Positions 3,567 to 57,125 of a stretch of DNA of 64,000 nt are shown piece by piece. The DNA comes from Promethearchaeota archaeon Loki_b32 (GTDB taxonomy: Archaea > Asgardarchaeota > Lokiarchaeia > Sigyniarchaeales > SOKP01): NCBI GenBank assembly GCA_005223125.1, contig NJBH01000003.1:96001-160000 (forward strand), written 5' to 3'. Under the pieces are notes generated by a model. That model saw only the letters and a program-made list of their open reading frames with translations, had not been told where the DNA came from and ran no database searches. Position numbers and translations under genes: made by a program. Positions within the stretch are counted from its first letter, which is position 1. Every line of letters starts with the position of its first letter.

Positions 3567-3757
3567 TTTTATTTTATTTTATCTTTTTATTTTCAAGTTT
3601 TTAACAAATTTTTTGAACTAAATTTTTAGATTTGAAAATTGAAACTATATATTTTTCAAAAAGAAATTCTATTTCAATAATTTTTCATTGATTTTTATTA
3701 TACTCTAAAGAATTTTCCAAAAGATATTTTTGAGATTGAAATTTAATTAAGTTTATC

Positions 3758-4840
3758 ATGGTCTACCACATAATCACTTTACCTGTTTCAATTCTTTTTA
3801 TTATTTGCGGTGGTGGTTTATTTTGTTATGCGATTAAATTAAGAAAAAAATTTCCTGAATACCATAATTTTCTAAATAGTATTTGTACATTTATCCTTTG
3901 GATAATAGCCGGATTGTTATATCCAGTCTATTTTTCTACTAATAATCCAAATTTCAAATTCTTTCAATCCCTATCTATCTTTTTCATATGTATATTTACA
4001 CCTAGCTTAATAATCCTCATATTATTTTATCAATTACAGTTTGTTGTCAAAAAGGATCCAGAAATTAAGGAAAAAAGGAATATTAAAGTTTTTCTCGAGA
4101 GTTTTGATAAGAAGGACAAAGAATTAAATAGATCAAGATCATATGATTACAAAACTGATTTACACCGGAAGGCTTTACATTTATTTCCAGCGGGAATTAT
4201 TATCCTATTATGGATTTTCTCAGTATATATTTGGGACGGATTATGGAATGCTGATGAAATTTGGGGTATAAGTGGAGAGTATTATGGAAAGTTTTTAATT
4301 TTAACAGCCGGTTATTCAGGTATTTTAATTTTTGGTGCTCTAGATTATGTGAGACTTTCATTCATCTATGAGAATCGCAATCTATTTCATTTAATACCTG
4401 ATAGCGTTTTAAAATTATTAGGAAAAGCAATGAAACGAAGAGAAAATTATGAATTCATTAGGCCTACAGTTTTAGTATTATCATTTGCGACTATTTTTTT
4501 CTTTCCTTTTGGAGTATTTGCTGCTGCGGTCCTAATAGCTACAATTGGTGACGGGGCTGCCTCTGTTATTGGACTTCGATTTGGAAAAAGACATTTTCCA
4601 AAAACATCAGATAAAACCTTACTTGGATATATTGCTGGATTCTTAGCATCTTTTGGAATAAGTATTCTTATGTTGTGGATATTTGAGTCTCACTTGAGCT
4701 TGAATAAAATTATAATTGTTGCTACACTTGGAGCTATTACCTTTTTCATTATTGATATTTTGAATTTAAAGATTGATGATAATATATTAAATCCAATATT
4801 TTGTGCTTTAATTATGGGATTTTTATATTATTTTTTATGA
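3758..4840 (+). CDS. Dolichol/phytol kinase family (CTP-dependent polyprenol kinase) membrane protein
   Basis: DLHRKALHL, IGDGAASVIGLRFGK, KTLLGYIAG and DDNILNP motifs; multiple TM segments. Confidence 0.8.
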   Translation: MVYHIITLPVSILFIICGGGLFCYAIKLRKKFPEYHNFLNSICTFILWIIAGLLYPVYFSTNNPNFKFFQSLSIFFICIFTPSLIILILFYQLQFVVKKDPEIKEKRNIKVFLESFDKKDKELNRSRSYDYKTDLHRKALHLFPAGIIILLWIFSVYIWDGLWNADEIWGISGEYYGKFLILTAGYSGILIFGALDYVRLSFIYENRNLFHLIPDSVLKLLGKAMKRRENYEFIRPTVLVLSFATIFFFPFGVFAAAVLIATIGDGAASVIGLRFGKRHFPKTSDKTLLGYIAGFLASFGISILMLWIFESHLSLNKIIIVATLGAITFFIIDILNLKIDDNILNPIFCALIMGFLYYFL

Positions 4841-4909: not shown

Positions 4910-5413
4910 ATGGCTCAATCGGAGGATAGTAAACTGTTTAGCTGTCCAAAATGCGGAACACAGGGTGCTATTATTTTTCTAAAAGCTGAGGGAAATAAAA
5001 TTATTGTAAAACAAAAATGCCCAAAGCATGGAGTGAGAAGTTTTAATATTCCTTTAATGCAAAAAAATCGTTTTATTCCTCATTTTCGTGATGGGGTTTT
5101 TCGGTGTTATCAATGCGGACAAGAAGCTACAGTTATAAGTTCAAAAGCATCAGGTCCTTGGATGTTAATAAAATGTGCTTGTCCAACTCATGGAAACAAA
5201 TTGCCTCTACAAAGAATTTGGAGTACTGTTTACACCGATATTTCTAATAAGGACGCCCCAGCACCACAATCAGTTCAACCACAATCAGTTCAACCACAAT
5301 CAGTTCAACCTCAACCTGCTCCAAGTGACGAAAAGAAGTTTTGTCCTAATTGTGGAACACCACTAAGTGGAACAGATAAACATTGCGACGCTTGTGGCTC
5401 AGAAATAAATTAA
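4910..5413 (+). CDS. Zinc-ribbon protein: two CxxC-x21-CPxHG modules plus a C-terminal double CxxC ribbon
   Basis: CPKC...CPKHG, CYQC...CPTHG, FCPNCG...HCDACG. Confidence 0.8.
   Translation: MAQSEDSKLFSCPKCGTQGAIIFLKAEGNKIIVKQKCPKHGVRSFNIPLMQKNRFIPHFRDGVFRCYQCGQEATVISSKASGPWMLIKCACPTHGNKLPLQRIWSTVYTDISNKDAPAPQSVQPQSVQPQSVQPQPAPSDEKKFCPNCGTPLSGTDKHCDACGSEIN
5264..5308 (+). repeat. Perfect 15-bp tandem repeat x3 (CCACAATCAGTTCAA) encoding a PQSVQ linker
   Basis: Read directly from the sequence. Confidence 0.95.
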
Positions 5414-5451: not shown

Positions 5452-5811
5452 TTAAAAAAATGCATCCATCTTTTTAATTCCCTTTATTTCTTCATAAGTA
5501 ATACCTAGTGGATCTAAGACTTGCTCAAGAGCAGAAATAAGAAGGTCTCTATATTTTTTAATATCTATATCTTGGAGTTTAGCTAGTTCAAGTGCCCTTG
5601 CTCCAATGGATCCCTTACTCTTGATAAAACTTATTGTTTCACCATTTTGGAATTCTTTTCCAGTAGTATTTTTTAATTATAATGCAGCTTTTACATGTTG
5701 AGGAATAACTTTTGTGTAATTTTTAAGAGCCTTCTGTAAGCCAATGTTAATAGCATAATCTTCTAAAGTGAAAGTATTTGGTTTCCCTATCTTCTTTAGA
5801 TTATCTCTTAT
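5452..5811 (-). pseudogene. Orphan 3' fragment of family B DNA polymerase PolB1 (120 codons, no start, internal TAA at 5677-5679)
   Basis: Translates IRDNLKKIGKPNTFTLEDYAINIGLQKALKNYTKVIPQHVKAAL*LKNTTGKEFQNGETISFIKSKGSIGARALELAKLQDIDIKKYRDLLISALEQVLDPLGITYEEIKGIKKMDAFF; aligns without gaps to polB1 8550..8224. Confidence 0.93.
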
Positions 5812-5821
5812 AAAATAAAAT

Positions 5822-6832
5822 TTAATTTTTTTCAATAAAATCTAATAATGTTGGAGTTCTTTTTAATTCATAAATTTCTTCAATAAATCTTTTCAAATGA
5901 TTAACTAAATTTTTATATTTTATGATATAATTTCCTTGTTCTTCATTGTTAATTGCATAATTTAATTTTACAAACATTTCCATCGCGTCAATTACCCAAC
6001 TTCTTTTTGGAGCTACAAATTGCCTTTCATCATTCGCATGATAGTCCGAGAATTGAGTTCTTAGCCTTTCTGTTAAGTCATCGATATTCACTCGTATCTC
6101 GATTATTTTAATCCCTTTAGATTCCATAAATTCTTCCATTTGTGGATATTGATTAAAAATTCTCGTCCATAAAATTTCCATAGTATATGCAACATTCGGT
6201 TTTACATCATAAAACTTTATTGGATAACGAGGTATTACCTTATTTAATGGAACAAATACAATTGTGCGAAATTTTTCATCTAGATTAACGTCTGTCAAAT
6301 TTCCATATCCTTTTTCTAATGCTAAAGCATAATTGACACCGTAATCTCTATGAAAAGCAATTACAGCAAAATTTTTATTAAAAATCAGCTCCTTTTTCTG
6401 AGATAGATAATCACTTACATGAACTTTCATTCTATAGTGCGTCAAAAGTATGATATCAAAATTATCAATTAATTCATTCTCTGTTTTCCATCCTTTAAGA
6501 TCATCATCATATTTTTGTAATTGTTCAAAATCGTCTTTCCAATGTTCTCTATTTCTGGGAAATGATATTTTTGCTTCACTTAAAATACCATACTCTTCAT
6601 TTAATTGAAGAACCAAATCAGGTATAATTGTATTTTCAGGATTTATACGATTTACCTTTGAGGTATCCATCCTTCGGGCAATAAAACTATACGTATTAGA
6701 TTTGAAATCCATATTCTCATCATCCCATCTTATTACATGAGAAAAACAAATAATTGCTTCTAATGTTTGTTTATAATTATCTATATTCTCTAAGATTTTT
6801 TTAATTCCTCTATTAATTTTGTCTTCTGGCAT
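5822..6832 (-). CDS. Putative PD-(D/E)XK endonuclease, with possible C-terminal winged helix and PIP-like tail
   Basis: IIPDLVLQ...SEAKIS...EQLQKYDD matches the PD...ExK...QxxxY pattern; ends TPTLLDFIEKN. Confidence 0.65.
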   Translation of the reverse strand: MPEDKINRGIKKILENIDNYKQTLEAIICFSHVIRWDDENMDFKSNTYSFIARRMDTSKVNRINPENTIIPDLVLQLNEEYGILSEAKISFPRNREHWKDDFEQLQKYDDDLKGWKTENELIDNFDIILLTHYRMKVHVSDYLSQKKELIFNKNFAVIAFHRDYGVNYALALEKGYGNLTDVNLDEKFRTIVFVPLNKVIPRYPIKFYDVKPNVAYTMEILWTRIFNQYPQMEEFMESKGIKIIEIRVNIDDLTERLRTQFSDYHANDERQFVAPKRSWVIDAMEMFVKLNYAINNEEQGNYIIKYKNLVNHLKRFIEEIYELKRTPTLLDFIEKN

Positions 6833-6833
6833 T

Positions 6834-7955
6834 TTAAGAATAAAAGTCTTTAATAATTCCTTCTCGAAACCAAATAAATATAAAATTACATAATCTTACT
6901 AATGATGCATAAGTAGATCTCATTTGTGGAACAATTGTTATTTTATTATCAGAAAGAATCCAAATATCATAGGAAGAACCATCTCTAAAATCATTGAAAG
7001 AACAATGTAGATATGGATTTAGGTGATAAATAGAAAGAGATGAATATGTGATTTTTTGGAGTGCTTCAATTAATTTCTTATTTTGTTTTTTATCTTTAAA
7101 AACATCAATATTATATTTAATAACGACTGGTTTAGTTTTCAGATTTTCTTCTTTTGTACGTTCTCTATTGTCTAAGATTTTTATATCCGAAGTTACTTTT
7201 GAAATGATATCTCTGACTATATTATTATAAAAAAATCCAAACATTTTATTGCATCTAAAAAATGCATAACGAGAAATTTTACATTTCACATCACTATATA
7301 TATATTTCTTTCTATCATCTTCAAAAGGTTTAATCAAAGTAAATTCAATATAATTAATCCATTCATCATTTTCTCTAGCTTCTTGAAATAATTCTTCGAA
7401 AGGACGATCTGTAAACTTCACTTCTATCTCAAATTCTCGCCTAGCATATTCTTGGACAATTCTGGCTTGTTTTGATAAATGTCGTACTTGTATTTTGGAG
7501 TTTTCTAGTTTTTTCTCTAAATGATGCAGAATTTTTTCCAAATAATTCGAATCTAAAAAAAATCTAGAGATTTTAGGGTAAAATTTATCAAAAAAACTTA
7601 TTATATCATAATGAAAATTTCTATATTTTTCATGAGTGATAAGAATATAAATATTGGGTGTTTTATGTTTAAAAAGGATAAATCTACTAATTCTTGCTTT
7701 CTTACTACCTCTAATTATTTTTGTTAAATTAAATGAATAAATATTCTCTCCCAATTCCTTCTTTTTATATGTAAAATTTTTTAGATTTAAAGTTTCTAAG
7801 ATCTCAAAAATATCAAATTTTGAAGTCAGTATAAGAGTATAAAATTCTTCTCCTATATTTGATAAAATAGATGTTATAGTCTGAATTATTGAATTAATAT
7901 CTTTCTTTTCAATATCATAAAGCCAAGAAAGTGGATCTTCTCTTTTTTTTAACAT
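6834..7955 (-). CDS. Hypothetical protein, coupled to the downstream nuclease
   Basis: 373-aa ORF whose stop is 1 nt from the next ATG; no family recognised. Confidence 0.8.
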   Translation of the reverse strand: MLKKREDPLSWLYDIEKKDINSIIQTITSILSNIGEEFYTLILTSKFDIFEILETLNLKNFTYKKKELGENIYSFNLTKIIRGSKKARISRFILFKHKTPNIYILITHEKYRNFHYDIISFFDKFYPKISRFFLDSNYLEKILHHLEKKLENSKIQVRHLSKQARIVQEYARREFEIEVKFTDRPFEELFQEARENDEWINYIEFTLIKPFEDDRKKYIYSDVKCKISRYAFFRCNKMFGFFYNNIVRDIISKVTSDIKILDNRERTKEENLKTKPVVIKYNIDVFKDKKQNKKLIEALQKITYSSLSIYHLNPYLHCSFNDFRDGSSYDIWILSDNKITIVPQMRSTYASLVRLCNFIFIWFREGIIKDFYS

Positions 7956-8160
7956 TATTTACTATCTATAATAATTAGAATCAAAATATAAATTTTAATT
8001 TAAAGTCAATATTTATTATTTTTTTCATATTACTCCAAACTTAAATAAATATCTAGACTATTAGAGTTCTCTCATTTTTTAATGTATATTTGTCTTTACA
8101 CATTCTTATGATATTTAACTTGGATTTATTTAAATCTTTAATGATTATTTAAAAAATGAA

Positions 8161-11103
8161 TTAAAAAAGTGTTTTTTGAACACTTGGTTCTGCTTCTTCT
8201 TTCTTTTTATACTCTTTTAAAGTAATTTCTTCATATTCAATACCTAAAGCATCAAACAACTGCTCTAATGCTGATTTCAATAAATTTCTATATTTTTTAA
8301 CATTTAAATCTCTAAAACTAGCCAGATCAAAATCTTTAGCTCCAATACTGTCATTGCTTTTGATAAATTTAATATCATCACCTTTTTGATATTCCTTCCC
8401 TGTTATTTTTTTTAGTTCGTTAGCAGCTCTGACATGTTGCGGTATTGTTTTCTCATAAGATTTAAGAGATTTTTGTAATGTTATATAAATTGCATAGTCT
8501 TCTAAAGGAAATTCATCTTCCTTACCTATTTTTTTTCTATTAGCCTTTATAATTTCGATTATAGATTTTCGGGCTTTTAAAAAATCATCATCTGATTTTA
8601 CATTTTTTAATATATCAATTACTTGTCGAAATACTTTCTTAATAAATTCAGGTGTATTTTTTTTTTTAGCTAAGACTCCTTTCATATCAATGTATTTAGT
8701 ATTTTTATAGATACCAACATAATTTTTCTTTCTTTTAGATAATGCTAGAAATTGATAAGTTTTTTCCTCCTCCAAATCAAGATCTAGTTCATTTTTACTC
8801 CATTCAGATAATTGTCTCATTTGATCTTTTGTTGGATTTCTAAGAAAGACAGAATCTGTATCACCATATAATACTTCTATTCCTAATTCTTCTGATTTTT
8901 TAATTGTCTGTTTAATGGAATATTGTCCTATTGAAGTTGTACTTTCAGCCACCGGAAGGCAAAAAAGAGGAAAATTCTTAGATCCAAAAACACCATATGA
9001 ACCATTAATAAAAACTTTAAGAGCTTGTTGAATCGTTTGATAATAACTTCTTTGTTTTTCTGTTAAATTTTTATCACCAGATTTAGGTTTAAAATATTTT
9101 ACTCTTATATCTCGGAAAAAGCCTACGACATATGCAAAGATTCCCATTTTTTGAGTACATATATAGTAGGGGGTTCCTTTTACAAGATTATCTTCATCAT
9201 CCTTATGTGGACACAAAACTGTTTCATATGATAAATTATATTCCTTGATAATGGAAGGATATAGGCTAGCAAAATCCATAACAACGACATCGAAATGAAT
9301 ACCAGGAACAGGTGGAACAACATATGCCCCAGCAAATGTTTTTCCTTCGATAACAGCTTTTGAATATCCTCCTGTTTTTAATTCTGCAATTTCAGATCTA
9401 CGAGGTATAAGATATTTGTTTCTCCTGTGTTCAAAATAAAAAATATTCTGAATCCATGTAGATATTTGGCGCCTTACAGTTTCATGAATAGGCATTTTAG
9501 TAATTCGGCATAATAATAAAATTAAATTCCATACTAATGAATTATTAAATTTAGTTAATTCTAATGTAAGTATTGAATCTTTTAGATTATACCATGTAAG
9601 TATATCATATTCCATTTCGTGTATTTCTTCTTCATGTTCATATTTTTTTTCTCCCAATAGCGCTTCACTTATTGCGTTTAATGAACTGCTTTCATATGCT
9701 CCACCAAATGCATATCCAGAAATACTTCTATTAAAGAAGAAATTAAAGAGATCAATATGGATTCCTTTTCTTAGATCACAGTCAGATCTTGATAGAAAAC
9801 CAAAGCCTCTCTTAACATGGATGGGATTTAAATCTTTATTTATTTTTAACTTATTTGCTCTATGAAACATATAATTTAAGTCAAAATTATCACCATTGAA
9901 TGTGATAATTACAGGATATTCCCATAAAAGACGAAAGGATTCTGTCAATAATTCCTTTTCGCTTTTAAAGAATATAACTTCTGCATCAGATGGAAATTTT
10001 TTATGAAGTCCACGAAAAGCAAATCCTTCTCGTTCTAGTACATAAACTAATTTTAGTCCATCCGAAGCCACAAATGATATACTGATAATTGCTTGTTTTG
10101 CCTGACGAGGATCTGGAATAACAAAATCTTCTGATCCTATACTTACTTCGATATCCATAGCTAACCGTTTCACATCTGGAATCGGAGTGAGAAATATATC
10201 TAAAAACTTTTCCGAAAATTCTTGGATTTCTGGAGATTCATTTTTAAATAGAGCGCGCAATTCTTTTGCCATTCTCTTTGATTCTTCTGAAACCTCTTCA
10301 AAACTTAACTTTTTGATTTGACCACCCTGAATACTATAAATTAATCCAGGAATTAGTTGTCTATCGAAAATATAGTTTAAGTGATATCTAATGTCTGCTT
10401 CCCAAGCTTTTTTATTATTTTTACTTAAAATATTTCTGATATTTGTACCAGAACCTCCAATATCCGAAGGAGTTTTACCATATATTTTTGTCATCGATAT
10501 TTTTTTATCTTTTAGTAGATCTATTTTCTCTATTTCTTCAAATCTAGTAAAACCTTCATATTCTGTTAATTCTATCATATTTTGTAAATCTGTTAGCGTT
10601 TCCTTACTTAAACAATAAGGTTCATGGTCGGTTGTATCAATCCAAATCTTTATATCATCGGTTTCCAAATCATAAAATTTACAGTATGCTTTATTTTGTC
10701 CACCATCATAGTTAACATCAAGCAATATTCCTCGTTCCATATCTTCAACGATTTCTCCTTTTTCAATAAGGTATCGAATATATGTTGAAGAAACATTTTC
10801 TCGTAAAACCTTGGTTAATCTGATATTTCCTTCTTTTAAGCCAAAAAGTTCATTATTTCCTTTAAAAAATAAATTTGAAGGTATTTCTTTTGTAATTTTC
10901 TCTGCTTTTGGAGTTGGTTCTTTAGTTTTCTCTTCTTTTATAATTTTTGGCTTAGCTTTAGGTTTTTCTTCTTTATATTTTTCAGTCTTTACTACTTTTG
11001 GTGTTTCTGGGGATTTTACTTTTTTCTGCTCTTTATCGCTAACAAAGGAAAAAAGCGAGGTTTGTTCCTTATCATTTAGTTTTTTCTTTTTTGGAGGTGG
11101 CAT
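8161..11103 (-). CDS. polB1: Family B DNA polymerase, PolB1 type
   Basis: Exonuclease motifs AMDIEV, FNGDNFD and YNLKD; polymerase motifs DFASLYPSII, KVFINGSYG, YGDTDS and KKNY; N-terminal PIP-like QTSLFSF. Confidence 0.93.
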   Translation of the reverse strand: MPPPKKKKLNDKEQTSLFSFVSDKEQKKVKSPETPKVVKTEKYKEEKPKAKPKIIKEEKTKEPTPKAEKITKEIPSNLFFKGNNELFGLKEGNIRLTKVLRENVSSTYIRYLIEKGEIVEDMERGILLDVNYDGGQNKAYCKFYDLETDDIKIWIDTTDHEPYCLSKETLTDLQNMIELTEYEGFTRFEEIEKIDLLKDKKISMTKIYGKTPSDIGGSGTNIRNILSKNNKKAWEADIRYHLNYIFDRQLIPGLIYSIQGGQIKKLSFEEVSEESKRMAKELRALFKNESPEIQEFSEKFLDIFLTPIPDVKRLAMDIEVSIGSEDFVIPDPRQAKQAIISISFVASDGLKLVYVLEREGFAFRGLHKKFPSDAEVIFFKSEKELLTESFRLLWEYPVIITFNGDNFDLNYMFHRANKLKINKDLNPIHVKRGFGFLSRSDCDLRKGIHIDLFNFFFNRSISGYAFGGAYESSSLNAISEALLGEKKYEHEEEIHEMEYDILTWYNLKDSILTLELTKFNNSLVWNLILLLCRITKMPIHETVRRQISTWIQNIFYFEHRRNKYLIPRRSEIAELKTGGYSKAVIEGKTFAGAYVVPPVPGIHFDVVVMDFASLYPSIIKEYNLSYETVLCPHKDDEDNLVKGTPYYICTQKMGIFAYVVGFFRDIRVKYFKPKSGDKNLTEKQRSYYQTIQQALKVFINGSYGVFGSKNFPLFCLPVAESTTSIGQYSIKQTIKKSEELGIEVLYGDTDSVFLRNPTKDQMRQLSEWSKNELDLDLEEEKTYQFLALSKRKKNYVGIYKNTKYIDMKGVLAKKKNTPEFIKKVFRQVIDILKNVKSDDDFLKARKSIIEIIKANRKKIGKEDEFPLEDYAIYITLQKSLKSYEKTIPQHVRAANELKKITGKEYQKGDDIKFIKSNDSIGAKDFDLASFRDLNVKKYRNLLKSALEQLFDALGIEYEEITLKEYKKKEEAEPSVQKTLF

Positions 11104-54710: not shown

Positions 54711-57125
54711 TCATTCAGTAAAACACAGTAAATCCTTCTGGATGGATTTATTATTGAAATCTAATTTCAGAAGCGCTTCAAGTTCGGGGAATTTAAAAGG
54801 AAAAATGTTTTCAAACGCTCTTTTTAGCAGTTCAACATATTTCTTTCTGTCGTATTCGTGCCTTTTCTCATCATACAAATCTGAAAGTATTACTTTTTTT
54901 TCAGGAAAATCAGCATCAGCATCAGCATTAAGAATAATATATCTCACATTTTTCCCAGCAGACGCTACTACACCTGATCTTTCTAACTGTCTAGCAGCAA
55001 CCGCTTGGTAGCTATTTACTTTGTATTGATTTGGACTTCGAGAGATCTTTTGTTTTATCGTTAGCTCATCTCTTGATACTTCTCCTGAGTACACCCTCTC
55101 CACATATTCGAAGAGCTTTTTCTTTGCTTGAGGAATTCTTTCATTGAACTCATCAGCGGTCTTTGCTCCTTGAAATATGTCAATAAAAGCGTATTGAGCA
55201 TCTTTCACAATTTTGGGCGTATCTCTACGTCTCACTTCAATGCCTCTCACCTTAATCTCTCCGTTACTTTTTATCCCCCAGTAGTGATTTAGTGTCGGAA
55301 TGTCGTGTTCTGCTCGGGAAGGTAAGAAAACGATTACATTATATATCCCCTCCCAATTCATGGGAATTTTCATCTCTCGTGTGATTTTTTCCGCAATACC
55401 TTTTGTCAACTTTTCAAATTCTTCTGGAGTTCTTCCTTTCGTATCTTGGAGCCACAATGAATCCACAATTCCATGAATAATTCGGCATCCATGCTGTTCG
55501 GCAATCTCAGCAGAGCGCATTAGAAATTCTCGAGCAAAAGCACATACCGTTTGGTGGGCTTCGATTTTTCCAAAACGTGCATTCTTGAATCCTAAATAGC
55601 CAAAACTTACAACAAGTACCCATTTTAATGCAATATCCGTAAATTTATAACGAAGATCATCATGAGTTTTGTTATAATCTTTATACTGGAGACGTTTTCT
55701 TAGCGGTAGGCTGATTGATTTTGAGATGATTCCTTGCCTTTTGGAGCAAATATGAAAACTTCCACCCCCTGGCACTCTAAGTCCTGTTCCATCATCTTTG
55801 CAACATTTACAGTTTATTGTCTCTGAAGAAATGTTAAAATTTGCCATTAAAGATGGATACATTGAAGAAAAATCTAACTCTACGACTTGATCGAAGACTC
55901 CAATTAACGGTTCGAATATATGTCCTCCTCGATCATTTGTAATCAAATCCATACCACTTCGAAAATCTTCTGGACTCTTCTTGAAAGGGGGGATAAGATG
56001 ATCTAGTTTATATGCATTATAATATTGGATAGATTGAAGAGCACCTCCAATTGTTATTCTGCATAACCTCTGCATTGGTACACGTGAAATACGTGCGACT
56101 TCGATCACACCAGGGATATTACCCTCGCTAAAATGTAAACTGCCATAAGTCGTAGTGTCTAAATGAAAACGCCCTGTAAAGTAAACTTGTGTTTTCGAAC
56201 GTCGCATTATTATTCCATAAGACATGTAATGATCTGAGTTTCCTGAAAGGTTGAAGATACAATTTCTAAGTGGTGTTTTAGTACGAGAAAAATATAGATC
56301 CTTTGATACTCGATTCACTGATGCTCGAGCAGCCAAGTAAGGAAATACGAATTCATCTCCTCCATGTGTCAATATTATATCTGGATTTAATCGCTCAATC
56401 ACCTTACTAATTGTCTTGATGGTTTCAGCTTCATCAGCTTTATCGATTAGAATCTTTCTTTTCCTCTGTCCGTCTGCTCTTGGGATGTTGGCTTTTTCAT
56501 CTTTTTCAACAATACTAACTTCTGCATATAGCAGAGGGTCGTTGTAATATGATCTCATTCCACGTTGCTGTATTTTAATATCCAACCACACAGCTTTTAG
56601 AGGAGGTAAATCGTAAAACAATTCTTCGTTGTTGTCTTTTAATTCTAATGATATTAAACGCATTGAGTGCTCGTTTGCTTTTTTCTTCTTTTCAAGTTTG
56701 ACCTTTAAACCGCATAAAGACATTGGAAATAAGTCATTTACATAGAAATACATCTGAGAGATTGGAAGATCTGTATTATATGTTGTAAAAAGACCAATTT
56801 CATCGATTTCTTTTATTGTTTTCTTGAACACCGAAGGTTTTACTACAGAAACTCCAAATATTTTTGCTTTTTCATGATCTTCCAGCTTCACATATTTTTC
56901 ACAGATTCTCACACCTTTTATATTGTGATGAGATTTAAGAATCTGTTTTAGTCTCTTAAAATCTTTGCCAACATGTCGTTTTGGCACGGCGAAAAACTCG
57001 GGGTGGAAGTCATGGAAAATTTTTACTACCTTTTGCTCTTTTACAGTTTTCACCCAAAGAATGACTCCATTGTTATACGTGGTGACATCTAACAGCCAAC
57101 CATCAAATTGATCTTGGAAATCCAA
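54711..57125 (-). CDS. polB2: Family B DNA polymerase, PolB2 (Dpo2) type
   Basis: DFSSMYPS, KWVLVVSFGYLG, motif C altered to HGIVDS, degenerate ExoI (LDIKI), GIEVRRRDTP; PIP-like tail QKDLLCF. Confidence 0.9.
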   Translation of the reverse strand: MDFQDQFDGWLLDVTTYNNGVILWVKTVKEQKVVKIFHDFHPEFFAVPKRHVGKDFKRLKQILKSHHNIKGVRICEKYVKLEDHEKAKIFGVSVVKPSVFKKTIKEIDEIGLFTTYNTDLPISQMYFYVNDLFPMSLCGLKVKLEKKKKANEHSMRLISLELKDNNEELFYDLPPLKAVWLDIKIQQRGMRSYYNDPLLYAEVSIVEKDEKANIPRADGQRKRKILIDKADEAETIKTISKVIERLNPDIILTHGGDEFVFPYLAARASVNRVSKDLYFSRTKTPLRNCIFNLSGNSDHYMSYGIIMRRSKTQVYFTGRFHLDTTTYGSLHFSEGNIPGVIEVARISRVPMQRLCRITIGGALQSIQYYNAYKLDHLIPPFKKSPEDFRSGMDLITNDRGGHIFEPLIGVFDQVVELDFSSMYPSLMANFNISSETINCKCCKDDGTGLRVPGGGSFHICSKRQGIISKSISLPLRKRLQYKDYNKTHDDLRYKFTDIALKWVLVVSFGYLGFKNARFGKIEAHQTVCAFAREFLMRSAEIAEQHGCRIIHGIVDSLWLQDTKGRTPEEFEKLTKGIAEKITREMKIPMNWEGIYNVIVFLPSRAEHDIPTLNHYWGIKSNGEIKVRGIEVRRRDTPKIVKDAQYAFIDIFQGAKTADEFNERIPQAKKKLFEYVERVYSGEVSRDELTIKQKISRSPNQYKVNSYQAVAARQLERSGVVASAGKNVRYIILNADADADFPEKKVILSDLYDEKRHEYDRKKYVELLKRAFENIFPFKFPELEALLKLDFNNKSIQKDLLCFTE

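Follow-up and report, generated by a model that had tools for sequence, protein, structure and literature searches.

The gene pair and the 3′ end of polB

Two adjacent genes, called gene A and gene B here, were analyzed in a 64,000-nt stretch of contig NJBH01000003.1 of Promethearchaeota archaeon Loki_b32; this whole stretch is referred to as the window. The two open reading frames (ORFs) are separated by 1 nt and their region is AT-rich, as originally predicted, with 25.6% GC at 6001–8000 compared with roughly 27–35% over most of the window. The original prediction proposed a defense or selfish system without a methyltransferase, and indeed no methyltransferase gene is found in the window either within the inserted segment described below or adjoining it. 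Neither gene has a described function; the closest named families, MJECL33 and MJECL32, are both uncharacterized. Upstream of gene A lies polB, which encodes the host's main, replicative family B DNA polymerase, and a second copy of the polB 3′ end follows gene B. Between the two tail copies are genes A and B and no other cargo. The features of the locus are listed below; G and L numbers denote compared genomes and loci, G000 being the genome of the window.

4910..5413, plus strand: host zinc-ribbon gene at the far edge of the insertion site; its orthologue in G201 marks the empty site
5482..5832, minus strand: displaced native polB 3′ end (∼residues 852–961 and the tail ending KKMDAFF), a pseudogene; begins ∼10 nt past the gene B stop codon
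5822–6832, minus strand: gene B, 336 aa; predicted PD-(D/E)XK domain, winged helix, flexible linker, and a C-terminal motif resembling a PCNA-interacting peptide (PIP)
6834–7955, minus strand: gene A, 373 aa; upstream of gene B and 1 nt from it
7956..8160: non-coding spacer within the cassette, from the polB stop codon to the gene A start
8161..8799, minus strand: foreign polB 3′ end (“L-type” tail, ∼residues 770–980, ending QKTLF); left boundary approximate
8800..11103, minus strand: polB body, host-derived, ∼residues 1–770, with Pfam DNA_pol_B and exonuclease domains
8161–11103, minus strand: complete polB ORF, 980 aa, upstream of gene A on the same strand

Orthologues of polB occur in 27 of the 30 genomes from the genus, with 71–88% identity over the whole protein. 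A search of the window's genome with PolB reveals, directly past gene B, a second partial PolB C-terminus that covers residues 845–961 at 59% identity and contains one in-frame TAA. This displaced fragment is 74–85% identical to the C-termini of the genus orthologues, matching the whole-protein range, and the last 135 aa of the tail attached to PolB are 60–66% identical to those orthologues. Relative to G201, the nearest relative, PolB is 93–100% identical up to residue 720 and 57–68% identical from ∼residue 780, the same point from which its identity to the cassette-bearing genome G261 climbs to 90–95%; the breakpoint of the mosaic is thus located at ∼residues 720–790. In G201 the zinc-ribbon orthologue stands ∼150 nt past the polB stop codon with nothing between, and no second tail copy is found in ∼20 polB loci of the genus that have a complete C-terminus. 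The tail identities, the G201 breakpoint, and the empty site together indicate that a block at ∼5833–8800 (∼2.7–3 kb), consisting of the foreign polB tail, the spacer, gene A, and gene B and referred to here as the cassette, was inserted so that polB was kept intact and its native tail was displaced. Because the two tail copies in the window are diverged from one another (59% amino acid identity), one of them is foreign and the arrangement is not a fresh duplication.

The adjacency of the pair to polB is therefore the scar of an insertion and not a functional neighborhood, in contrast to the original prediction, in which linkage to the polymerase was thought to fit a role at replication forks. 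A functional link was rejected because PolB stands beside the pair in 0 of 59 metagenome loci and the insertion explains the arrangement in the window. Site-specific integration through a shared att core is also unlikely, since the junction at ∼residues 720–790 and the start of the fragment at ∼residue 852 do not coincide, a long identical core is lacking (the best shared stretch extends over 16 nt at 94%), and there is no integrase. ARAGORN detects no tRNA gene in the window.

The exchange of tails alters the C-terminal clamp motif of PolB (window 8161–8223 and 5482–5520), replacing native ..KKMDAFF by ..VQKTLF after a longer charged linker; PolB additionally has an N-terminal QTSLFSF. In several other members of the genus (G207:C14, G213:C19, and G210:C55, corresponding to L040, L043, and L037) PolB occurs in frames of 1318–1333 aa with the match split at ∼residues 612–615 or 745–750, probably by inteins. 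The window also has, at about 54759–56105 on the minus strand, an 805-aa frame for a second, distant family B polymerase-like gene with 27% identity to PolB residues 529–964. Neighbors beyond the cassette encode an NAPRTase, a radical SAM enzyme, the zinc-ribbon protein, an M42 peptidase, and a phosphodiesterase.

Movement between species and distribution of the pair

The same arrangement with the same right-hand junction is found in G261 (L005), a genome of the same genus. DNA identities between G000 and G261 over the segments of the locus are as follows.

polB body: 76.7%
foreign tail: 88.9%
non-coding spacer: 94.6%
gene A: 97.5%
gene B: 95.6%
displaced fragment: 79.4%

Identity thus reaches 95–98% in the cassette, the non-coding spacer included, compared with 77–79% in its flanks, which indicates that the cassette was recently transferred horizontally into the same site.

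The L-type tail (..QxTLF) occurs in three more species of the genus, G251 (88%), G250 (76%), and G171 (72%). The contig of G251 breaks off at the polB stop codon. In G250 (L131, which is G250:C4:73000-82000) the L-type tail precedes a convergent ORF of 685 aa that matches Hint and LAGLIDADG_3, behind which lies a displaced fragment of native type, and in G171 it accompanies a 487-aa version of the Hint/LAGLIDADG ORF without a displaced fragment.

L131 1341–3398 (minus strand) and 3631–3885 (plus strand); L123 1–1464: Hint + LAGLIDADG_3 loci, 685 and 487 aa

Because G250 and G171 carry LAGLIDADG ORFs together with the L-type tail at this position, the 3′ end of polB represents a hot spot of endonuclease elements, where the A–B pair fills the same niche as the gene for a classical homing endonuclease. 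The window contains no remnant of the LAGLIDADG ORF of G250. Just past the displaced fragment of G250 are genes for a winged-helix regulator and a MazF-like toxin.

Direct repeats flanking the pair are also seen in unrelated contexts. In L009 (Nanoarchaeota) 37 nt from the 3′ end of the upstream ORF are repeated 9 nt past the gene B stop codon at 95% identity, and in L100 ∼53 nt of upstream intergenic DNA are repeated 10 nt past gene B; weaker flanking repeats occur in L049/L051 and L064/L065.

A word-indexed search recovers 35 homologues of gene A and 22 of gene B, and an exhaustive profile search with gene A yields 729 clusters (50% identity), of which 348 have E ≤ 1e-30; nearly all are ∼365 aa long. 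The 150 best gene A representatives are all 173–399 aa; neither fused A–B forms nor longer forms with the C-terminal domain of gene A were found, which is weak evidence. The two genes are adjacent in ∼65 loci from archaea, bacteria, and plasmids, and, as was expected of a unit, they stand together almost everywhere that they are found. Gene B directly follows gene A, with an overlap or gap of a few bases, in 12 of the 14 loci that come from species genomes and a single viral contig, the hosts being Promethearchaeota, Methanoregula, Nanoarchaeota, Micrarchaeota, Gemmataceae, Planctomycetota, Anaerolineales, and candidate division B38. Among the 59 metagenome loci, B follows A in ∼50 of the 52 with a long enough contig; L104 and L105 are decayed exceptions. 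Plasmid-borne pairs occur in Natrinema, Halosegnis, Haloarcula marismortui (pNG100), and Arthrobacter. Within its own lineage the pair is rare, being carried by 5 of 135 genomes in the family to which the window belongs and by 2 of 54 in the genus, and a scan of 201 genomes of the phylum with the gene B profile matches the window's genome only, apart from a weak partial match in G147 (E = 3.3e-6). The ORFs are intact in nearly all loci; in 3 of ∼60 (L052, L055, and L103) A or B is split into two ORFs, which could reflect frameshifts by decay or sequencing errors.

Some loci depart from the usual arrangement. In L104 (1–1404) a gene A homologue lacks gene B and is followed by a convergent small pair resembling a RelE/ParE-type toxin–antitoxin, probably at a decayed locus. 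A metagenome-assembled genome of Cenarchaeum sp. contains gene A-like genes without gene B at L015 9179–11062 and L016 9134–10306, with neighbors that have no Pfam matches. One of these proteins is 627 aa long with an extra N-terminal part, and the gene for the other lies ∼500 nt upstream of that for a 1137-aa PolB, which is 37% identical to the PolB of the window.

In the ESM Atlas gene A falls beside clusters with MJECL33 (PF25924) and AF_0896_M (PF27341) at TM-scores of 0.72–0.78, and gene B beside MJECL32 (PF27326) at 0.60; in Pfam 38.1 all three families are uncharacterized, with no function attached. Going by their numbering, MJECL33 and MJECL32 are named after neighboring ORFs of the large plasmid of M. 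jannaschii. Adjacent hypothetical ORFs of 405 and 438 aa on that plasmid have weak matches to the profiles built here (E = 0.03–0.04) and a TPD...ExK motif, and are probably the eponymous MJECL33/MJECL32 pair.

Predicted folds and the C-terminal tail of gene B

The nuclease motifs on which the original prediction was based are present in gene B as P71-D72-L73, E86-A87-K88, and Q104-L-Q-K-Y108, and P71, D72, E86, K88, Y108, and D109 are invariant across 22 homologues that are 27–61% identical to gene B. Its AlphaFold2 model has a predicted local distance difference test (pLDDT) score of 86.6, with low values for the last 16 residues. Structural alignment with VIA matches residues 16–190 to AF2093 (Z 9.3 over 121 aa, root mean square deviation (RMSD) 2.9), XisH (Z 8.0), AF1548 (Z 7.4), and NucS (Z 6.2), and Upx, PaqCI, Can2, NotI, Bax1, and LlaBIII are also among the matches, which range from Z 6 to 9.3. 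It was by VIA-align that the fold emerged: Foldseek against the PDB gives nothing for gene B at E ≤ 0.001, and profile searches against PDB sequences give no match for the pair. The predicted restriction-endonuclease-like core, together with the conserved catalytic D...(D/E)-x-K, in which D72, E86, and K88 are invariant, identifies gene B as a predicted metal-dependent PD-(D/E)XK nuclease. The possible winged helix that had been proposed is recovered in the model at residues 210–320, with Z ∼6–6.6 to many such domains.

Gene A, which had been described as having no recognizable motif, can now be assigned a fold. The AlphaFold2 model (pLDDT 90.7) has at residues ∼35–259 a double domain that resembles, by VIA, Iml3 (Z 8.5), CENP-L (Z 7.8), and RdgC. 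The RdgC alignments have Z 5.9–6.5 over 183–194 residues with RMSD ∼5, the scores for Iml3 and CENP-L being higher. Foldseek matches gene A to the RdgC proteins of E. coli and P. aeruginosa with probability 1.0 and E = 9e-5, but with TM-scores of only ∼0.3, and at least eight phage RdgC models match with probability 0.99–1.0, likewise at TM ∼0.3. Neither gene A nor any of 34 homologues matches Pfam RdgC, and no sequence similarity to RdgC is detected. Because the Z scores are moderate, gene A is treated as a likeness of fold only, so that “RdgC/CENP-L-like” is a description of its predicted fold and not of family membership. In addition to the region that resembles RdgC and CENP-L/Iml3, gene A has a highly conserved alpha+beta domain at residues 260–373 that resembles TBP and KA1 (KA1 Z 9.5–9.7 by VIA). 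The C-terminal stretch NPYLHCSFNDFRDGSSYDIW...IVPQ is present as originally quoted, and the impression that this end of the protein is structured and conserved agrees with the model and the alignment: 16 of the 18 invariant columns lie within residues 276–366, in the TBP/KA1-like domain, which carries a highly conserved polar patch. Invariant residues include S308, H311, N313, P314, D322, D325, S327, W332, Q344, and E365. Their clustering in the last domain suggests an active, ligand-binding, or partner-binding site.

Searches of both proteins and of their family alignments against Pfam, NCBIfam, PADLOC 2.0, and PHROGs give no meaningful match. Within PADLOC 2.0 gene A has only a weak match to BrxF (E = 0.0013, 16.6 bits) and gene B has none, and no PADLOC 2.0 system is matched, in line with the initial failure to recognize a named system.

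The C-terminus of gene B is TPTLLDFIEKN, and the PIP-like character ascribed to it extends to the family. Archaeal tails include QKTLEKW, QLPLTKFF, KTLNNFI, and TPTLLDFI, haloarchaeal plasmid copies end in QSSLDDF or QPTIGEF, and bacterial tails include QLSLF (Arthrobacter plasmid), QRNLF (Planctomycetota), and PSLF (Gemmataceae), with few bacterial examples of known taxonomy. QLSLF is the textbook motif for the bacterial beta clamp. The pattern Qxx[LIMF]xx[FYW] occurs in 22% of 65 tails compared with 0.4% of equal-length windows from the protein bodies (an enrichment of ∼60-fold), and T[LIM]xx[FYW] in 40% compared with 1.2%, although the tails are mutually related and the counts not independent. 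The motifs stand behind variable, non-conserved linkers, and their type tracks the clamp of the host, PIP-like in archaea and of beta-clamp form in bacteria. Because the motif follows non-conserved linkers and switches with the domain of the host, we infer that the tail of gene B is a putative binder of the host sliding clamp, as the pattern is hard to explain except by such binding.

A proposed homing-type cassette and competing explanations

With a probability of roughly one half, we interpret genes A and B as a self-mobile nuclease cassette of homing type, a reading that draws on its likeness to known elements. The patchy, plasmid-borne distribution across domains, the minimal cargo, and the flanking repeats in unrelated contexts are consistent with it, and a mechanism of this kind is favored because the architecture matches that of the mobile endonuclease ORFs (mORFs) of fungal mitochondria, which form gene hybrids in Allomyces atp6 and in Glomus atp6, atp9, cox2, and nad3 (PMC3630166). 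In those hybrids, as in the window, the body of the host gene is followed by a foreign in-frame C-terminal piece, an endonuclease gene, and the displaced native C-terminus, and it is the native piece that agrees with close relatives, the inserted one being divergent (PMC3630166). The mORFs differ in being single LAGLIDADG or GIY-YIG genes of organelle genomes, whereas here two genes are found on an archaeal chromosome with relatives in bacteria and on plasmids; and cleavage has been shown for the Allomyces mORF (PMC3630166), whereas the cassette is known from its sequence.

What is observed is that the cassette was inserted, that polB bears a foreign tail, that the cassette passed between species, and that a different nuclease gene can occupy the same site. 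To these observations the model adds a complex of A and B, a role for A, clamp binding, and a cleavage specificity. Gene A, which combines an RdgC-like double domain that would encircle or sense DNA with a conserved C-terminal domain, would position or license gene B, a metal-dependent endonuclease with a winged helix that would be tethered to the sliding clamp through its C-terminal motif. Gene B would cut cassette-free polB alleles near codon 850, and the break would be mended by recombination with a cassette-bearing copy, whereby the cassette would be copied. Co-conversion would replace the upstream part of polB by the foreign version, which would resist cleavage, and would account for the position of the junction (∼720–790) upstream of the fragment start (∼852); a downstream crossover within the native tail would leave that tail behind as a fragment.

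Several points weigh against this interpretation. Classical homing endonuclease genes decay quickly, whereas A and B are both strongly conserved across domains and their ORFs are nearly all intact. Homing endonucleases are not known to have clamp-binding tails. Many loci have a divergently oriented upstream gene, and no flanking duplication is detected at either the protein or the DNA level in ∼25 of 31 loci with both flanks. Since the L-type tail also occurs with different cargo, the swap of tails could have been made first by the LAGLIDADG element. Furthermore, the neighbors of the pair are often restriction-modification, toxin–antitoxin, and other defense genes, which fits a defense module equally well, and restriction systems, too, are known to integrate with long duplications of the target while carrying no further mobility genes (PMC2853133).

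The main alternative, which we consider possible and clearly the less probable of the two, is that the pair is a module against viruses or plasmids, restriction-like without a methylase or similar to GAPS4, in which A would encircle DNA as a sensor of aberrant or foreign replicating DNA and B would be an effector delivered by the clamp; mobility would then consist of insertion accompanied by a long duplication of the target, and recombination would have led to the polB site by accident. Among 79 neighboring proteins, Pfam identifies N6_N4 DNA methylase (three), N-6 DNA methylase (two), Eco57I methylase (two), PIN (two), and TdeIII endonuclease, ResIII helicase, and RadC (one each). In L018 the pair adjoins a type III restriction-modification system, in Halosegnis it adjoins a DUF1156 protein and an HNH endonuclease, and the probable copy on the M. 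jannaschii plasmid (L118, NC_001732, record 36217–57338) is placed amid VapBC, an ATP-dependent OLD-like endonuclease, EVE, PIN, and type I restriction-modification genes. This stretch of the plasmid looks like a defense island. Strong conservation combined with rarity (5 of 135 family genomes) is typical of defense genes. Restriction systems insert with target duplications of 46–420 bp, and restriction gene complexes have no integrase or transposase but direct repeats of tens to hundreds of bp, often over the 3′ end of a gene (PMC2853133); the repeats of L009, L100, and the window are comparable, the cassette differing from such complexes in its lack of a methyltransferase. GAPS4, according to the sections of its description consulted (PMC13748975), is an experimentally shown two-gene system that pairs a PD-(D/E)xK nuclease with a partner that forms a ring, predicted to hold double-stranded DNA, and the N-terminal part of gene A has a weak likeness in the ESM Atlas to GAPS4b_N (TM 0.41–0.44), although values below 0.5 are not evidence of the same fold. 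Membership of the pair in GAPS4 was rejected on motif and gene order: in those same sections GAPS4a has an N-terminal HGxD-SxK and is encoded upstream of GAPS4b, whereas gene B has PD...ExK at residues 71–88 and is the downstream gene. They mention no clamp-binding tail (PMC13748975), and no sequence relation of GAPS4 to the pair is detectable; PADLOC 2.0 predates GAPS4. An origin in defense has the further difficulties that the only PADLOC 2.0 hit is the weak one to BrxF, and that the viral contig is the source of a single match and itself looks like a defense island. It also leaves unexplained both the LAGLIDADG gene at the same site with the same swap of tails and the edge of the cassette right past the gene B stop codon in unrelated loci. 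Of the original pairing of defense or selfishness, the local evidence favors the selfish part, with defense retained as the less likely rival. Homing and defense are not mutually exclusive, since defense and selfishness can be combined in one restriction-like nuclease.

Two further explanations are improbable. One is addiction of the “cleave and rescue” kind, in which B would attack the native polB tail, so that loss of the cassette would lead to breaks in an essential gene and the cassette would be stabilized without active homing. The architecture would be the same as for homing, neither a methylase nor an antitoxin is present, and the displaced part of the essential gene is precisely the one of which the cassette brings a diverged copy; on the other hand, the loci without a duplicated essential gene would be unexplained, and the displaced native tail beside the cassette would itself be a target. 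Less probable still is that the pair forms an accessory, replication-coupled repair or fork-processing nuclease with a logic like that of NucS/EndoMS and an RdgC-like partner modulating recombination, the unit traveling on mobile DNA as beneficial cargo. NucS, which is among the fold matches of gene B at Z 6.2, likewise switches its clamp motif between archaeal and bacterial forms, comparable to the alternation of archaeal PIP and bacterial QLSLF in gene B, and RdgC is a recombination-associated DNA-binding ring, according to the titles of 2owl and 2owy. A nuclease fold with a C-terminal clamp peptide that differs between archaea and bacteria is common to NucS/EndoMS and other clamp-bound PD-(D/E)XK nucleases and to the pair; NucS, however, is a single housekeeping protein with a different N-terminal domain, whereas the pair is sporadic, mobile, and seemingly has an obligatory partner. 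Presence in 5 of 135 family and 2 of 54 genus genomes is too sporadic for a repair pathway, and repair offers no reason for the flanking duplications or the swap of tails.

We therefore favor an endonuclease-driven mobile cassette with gene-hybrid formation, a mechanism already known, built here on a new two-gene, putatively clamp-tethered nuclease. A stronger form of this proposal, which is conceivable and at present doubtful, is that the pair represents an unrecognized class of elements that act by homing or by cleave-and-rescue and would be widespread among archaea and bacteria. Its two-subunit endonuclease (an RdgC-like ring or sensor and a PD-(D/E)XK nuclease) would ride on the host clamp, and in Asgard archaea the spread of the element would rewrite the PCNA-binding C-terminal tail of the replicative polymerase.

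With the favored interpretation, two uncharacterized families that are widespread as a pair acquire a function that can be tested, and cultured, tractable carriers of the pair exist in the plasmids of Haloarcula marismortui (pNG100), Natrinema, Halosegnis, and Arthrobacter. The replicative polB of Lokiarchaeia-like Asgard archaea emerges as a hot spot where nuclease elements swap the clamp-binding tail, giving rise to chimeric essential genes across species, and the gene-hybrid mechanism of fungal mitochondria appears to be at work in archaeal chromosomes. The dependence of the clamp peptide on the domain of the host points to a mobile nuclease that acts at the replisome, which would be new for both homing and defense.

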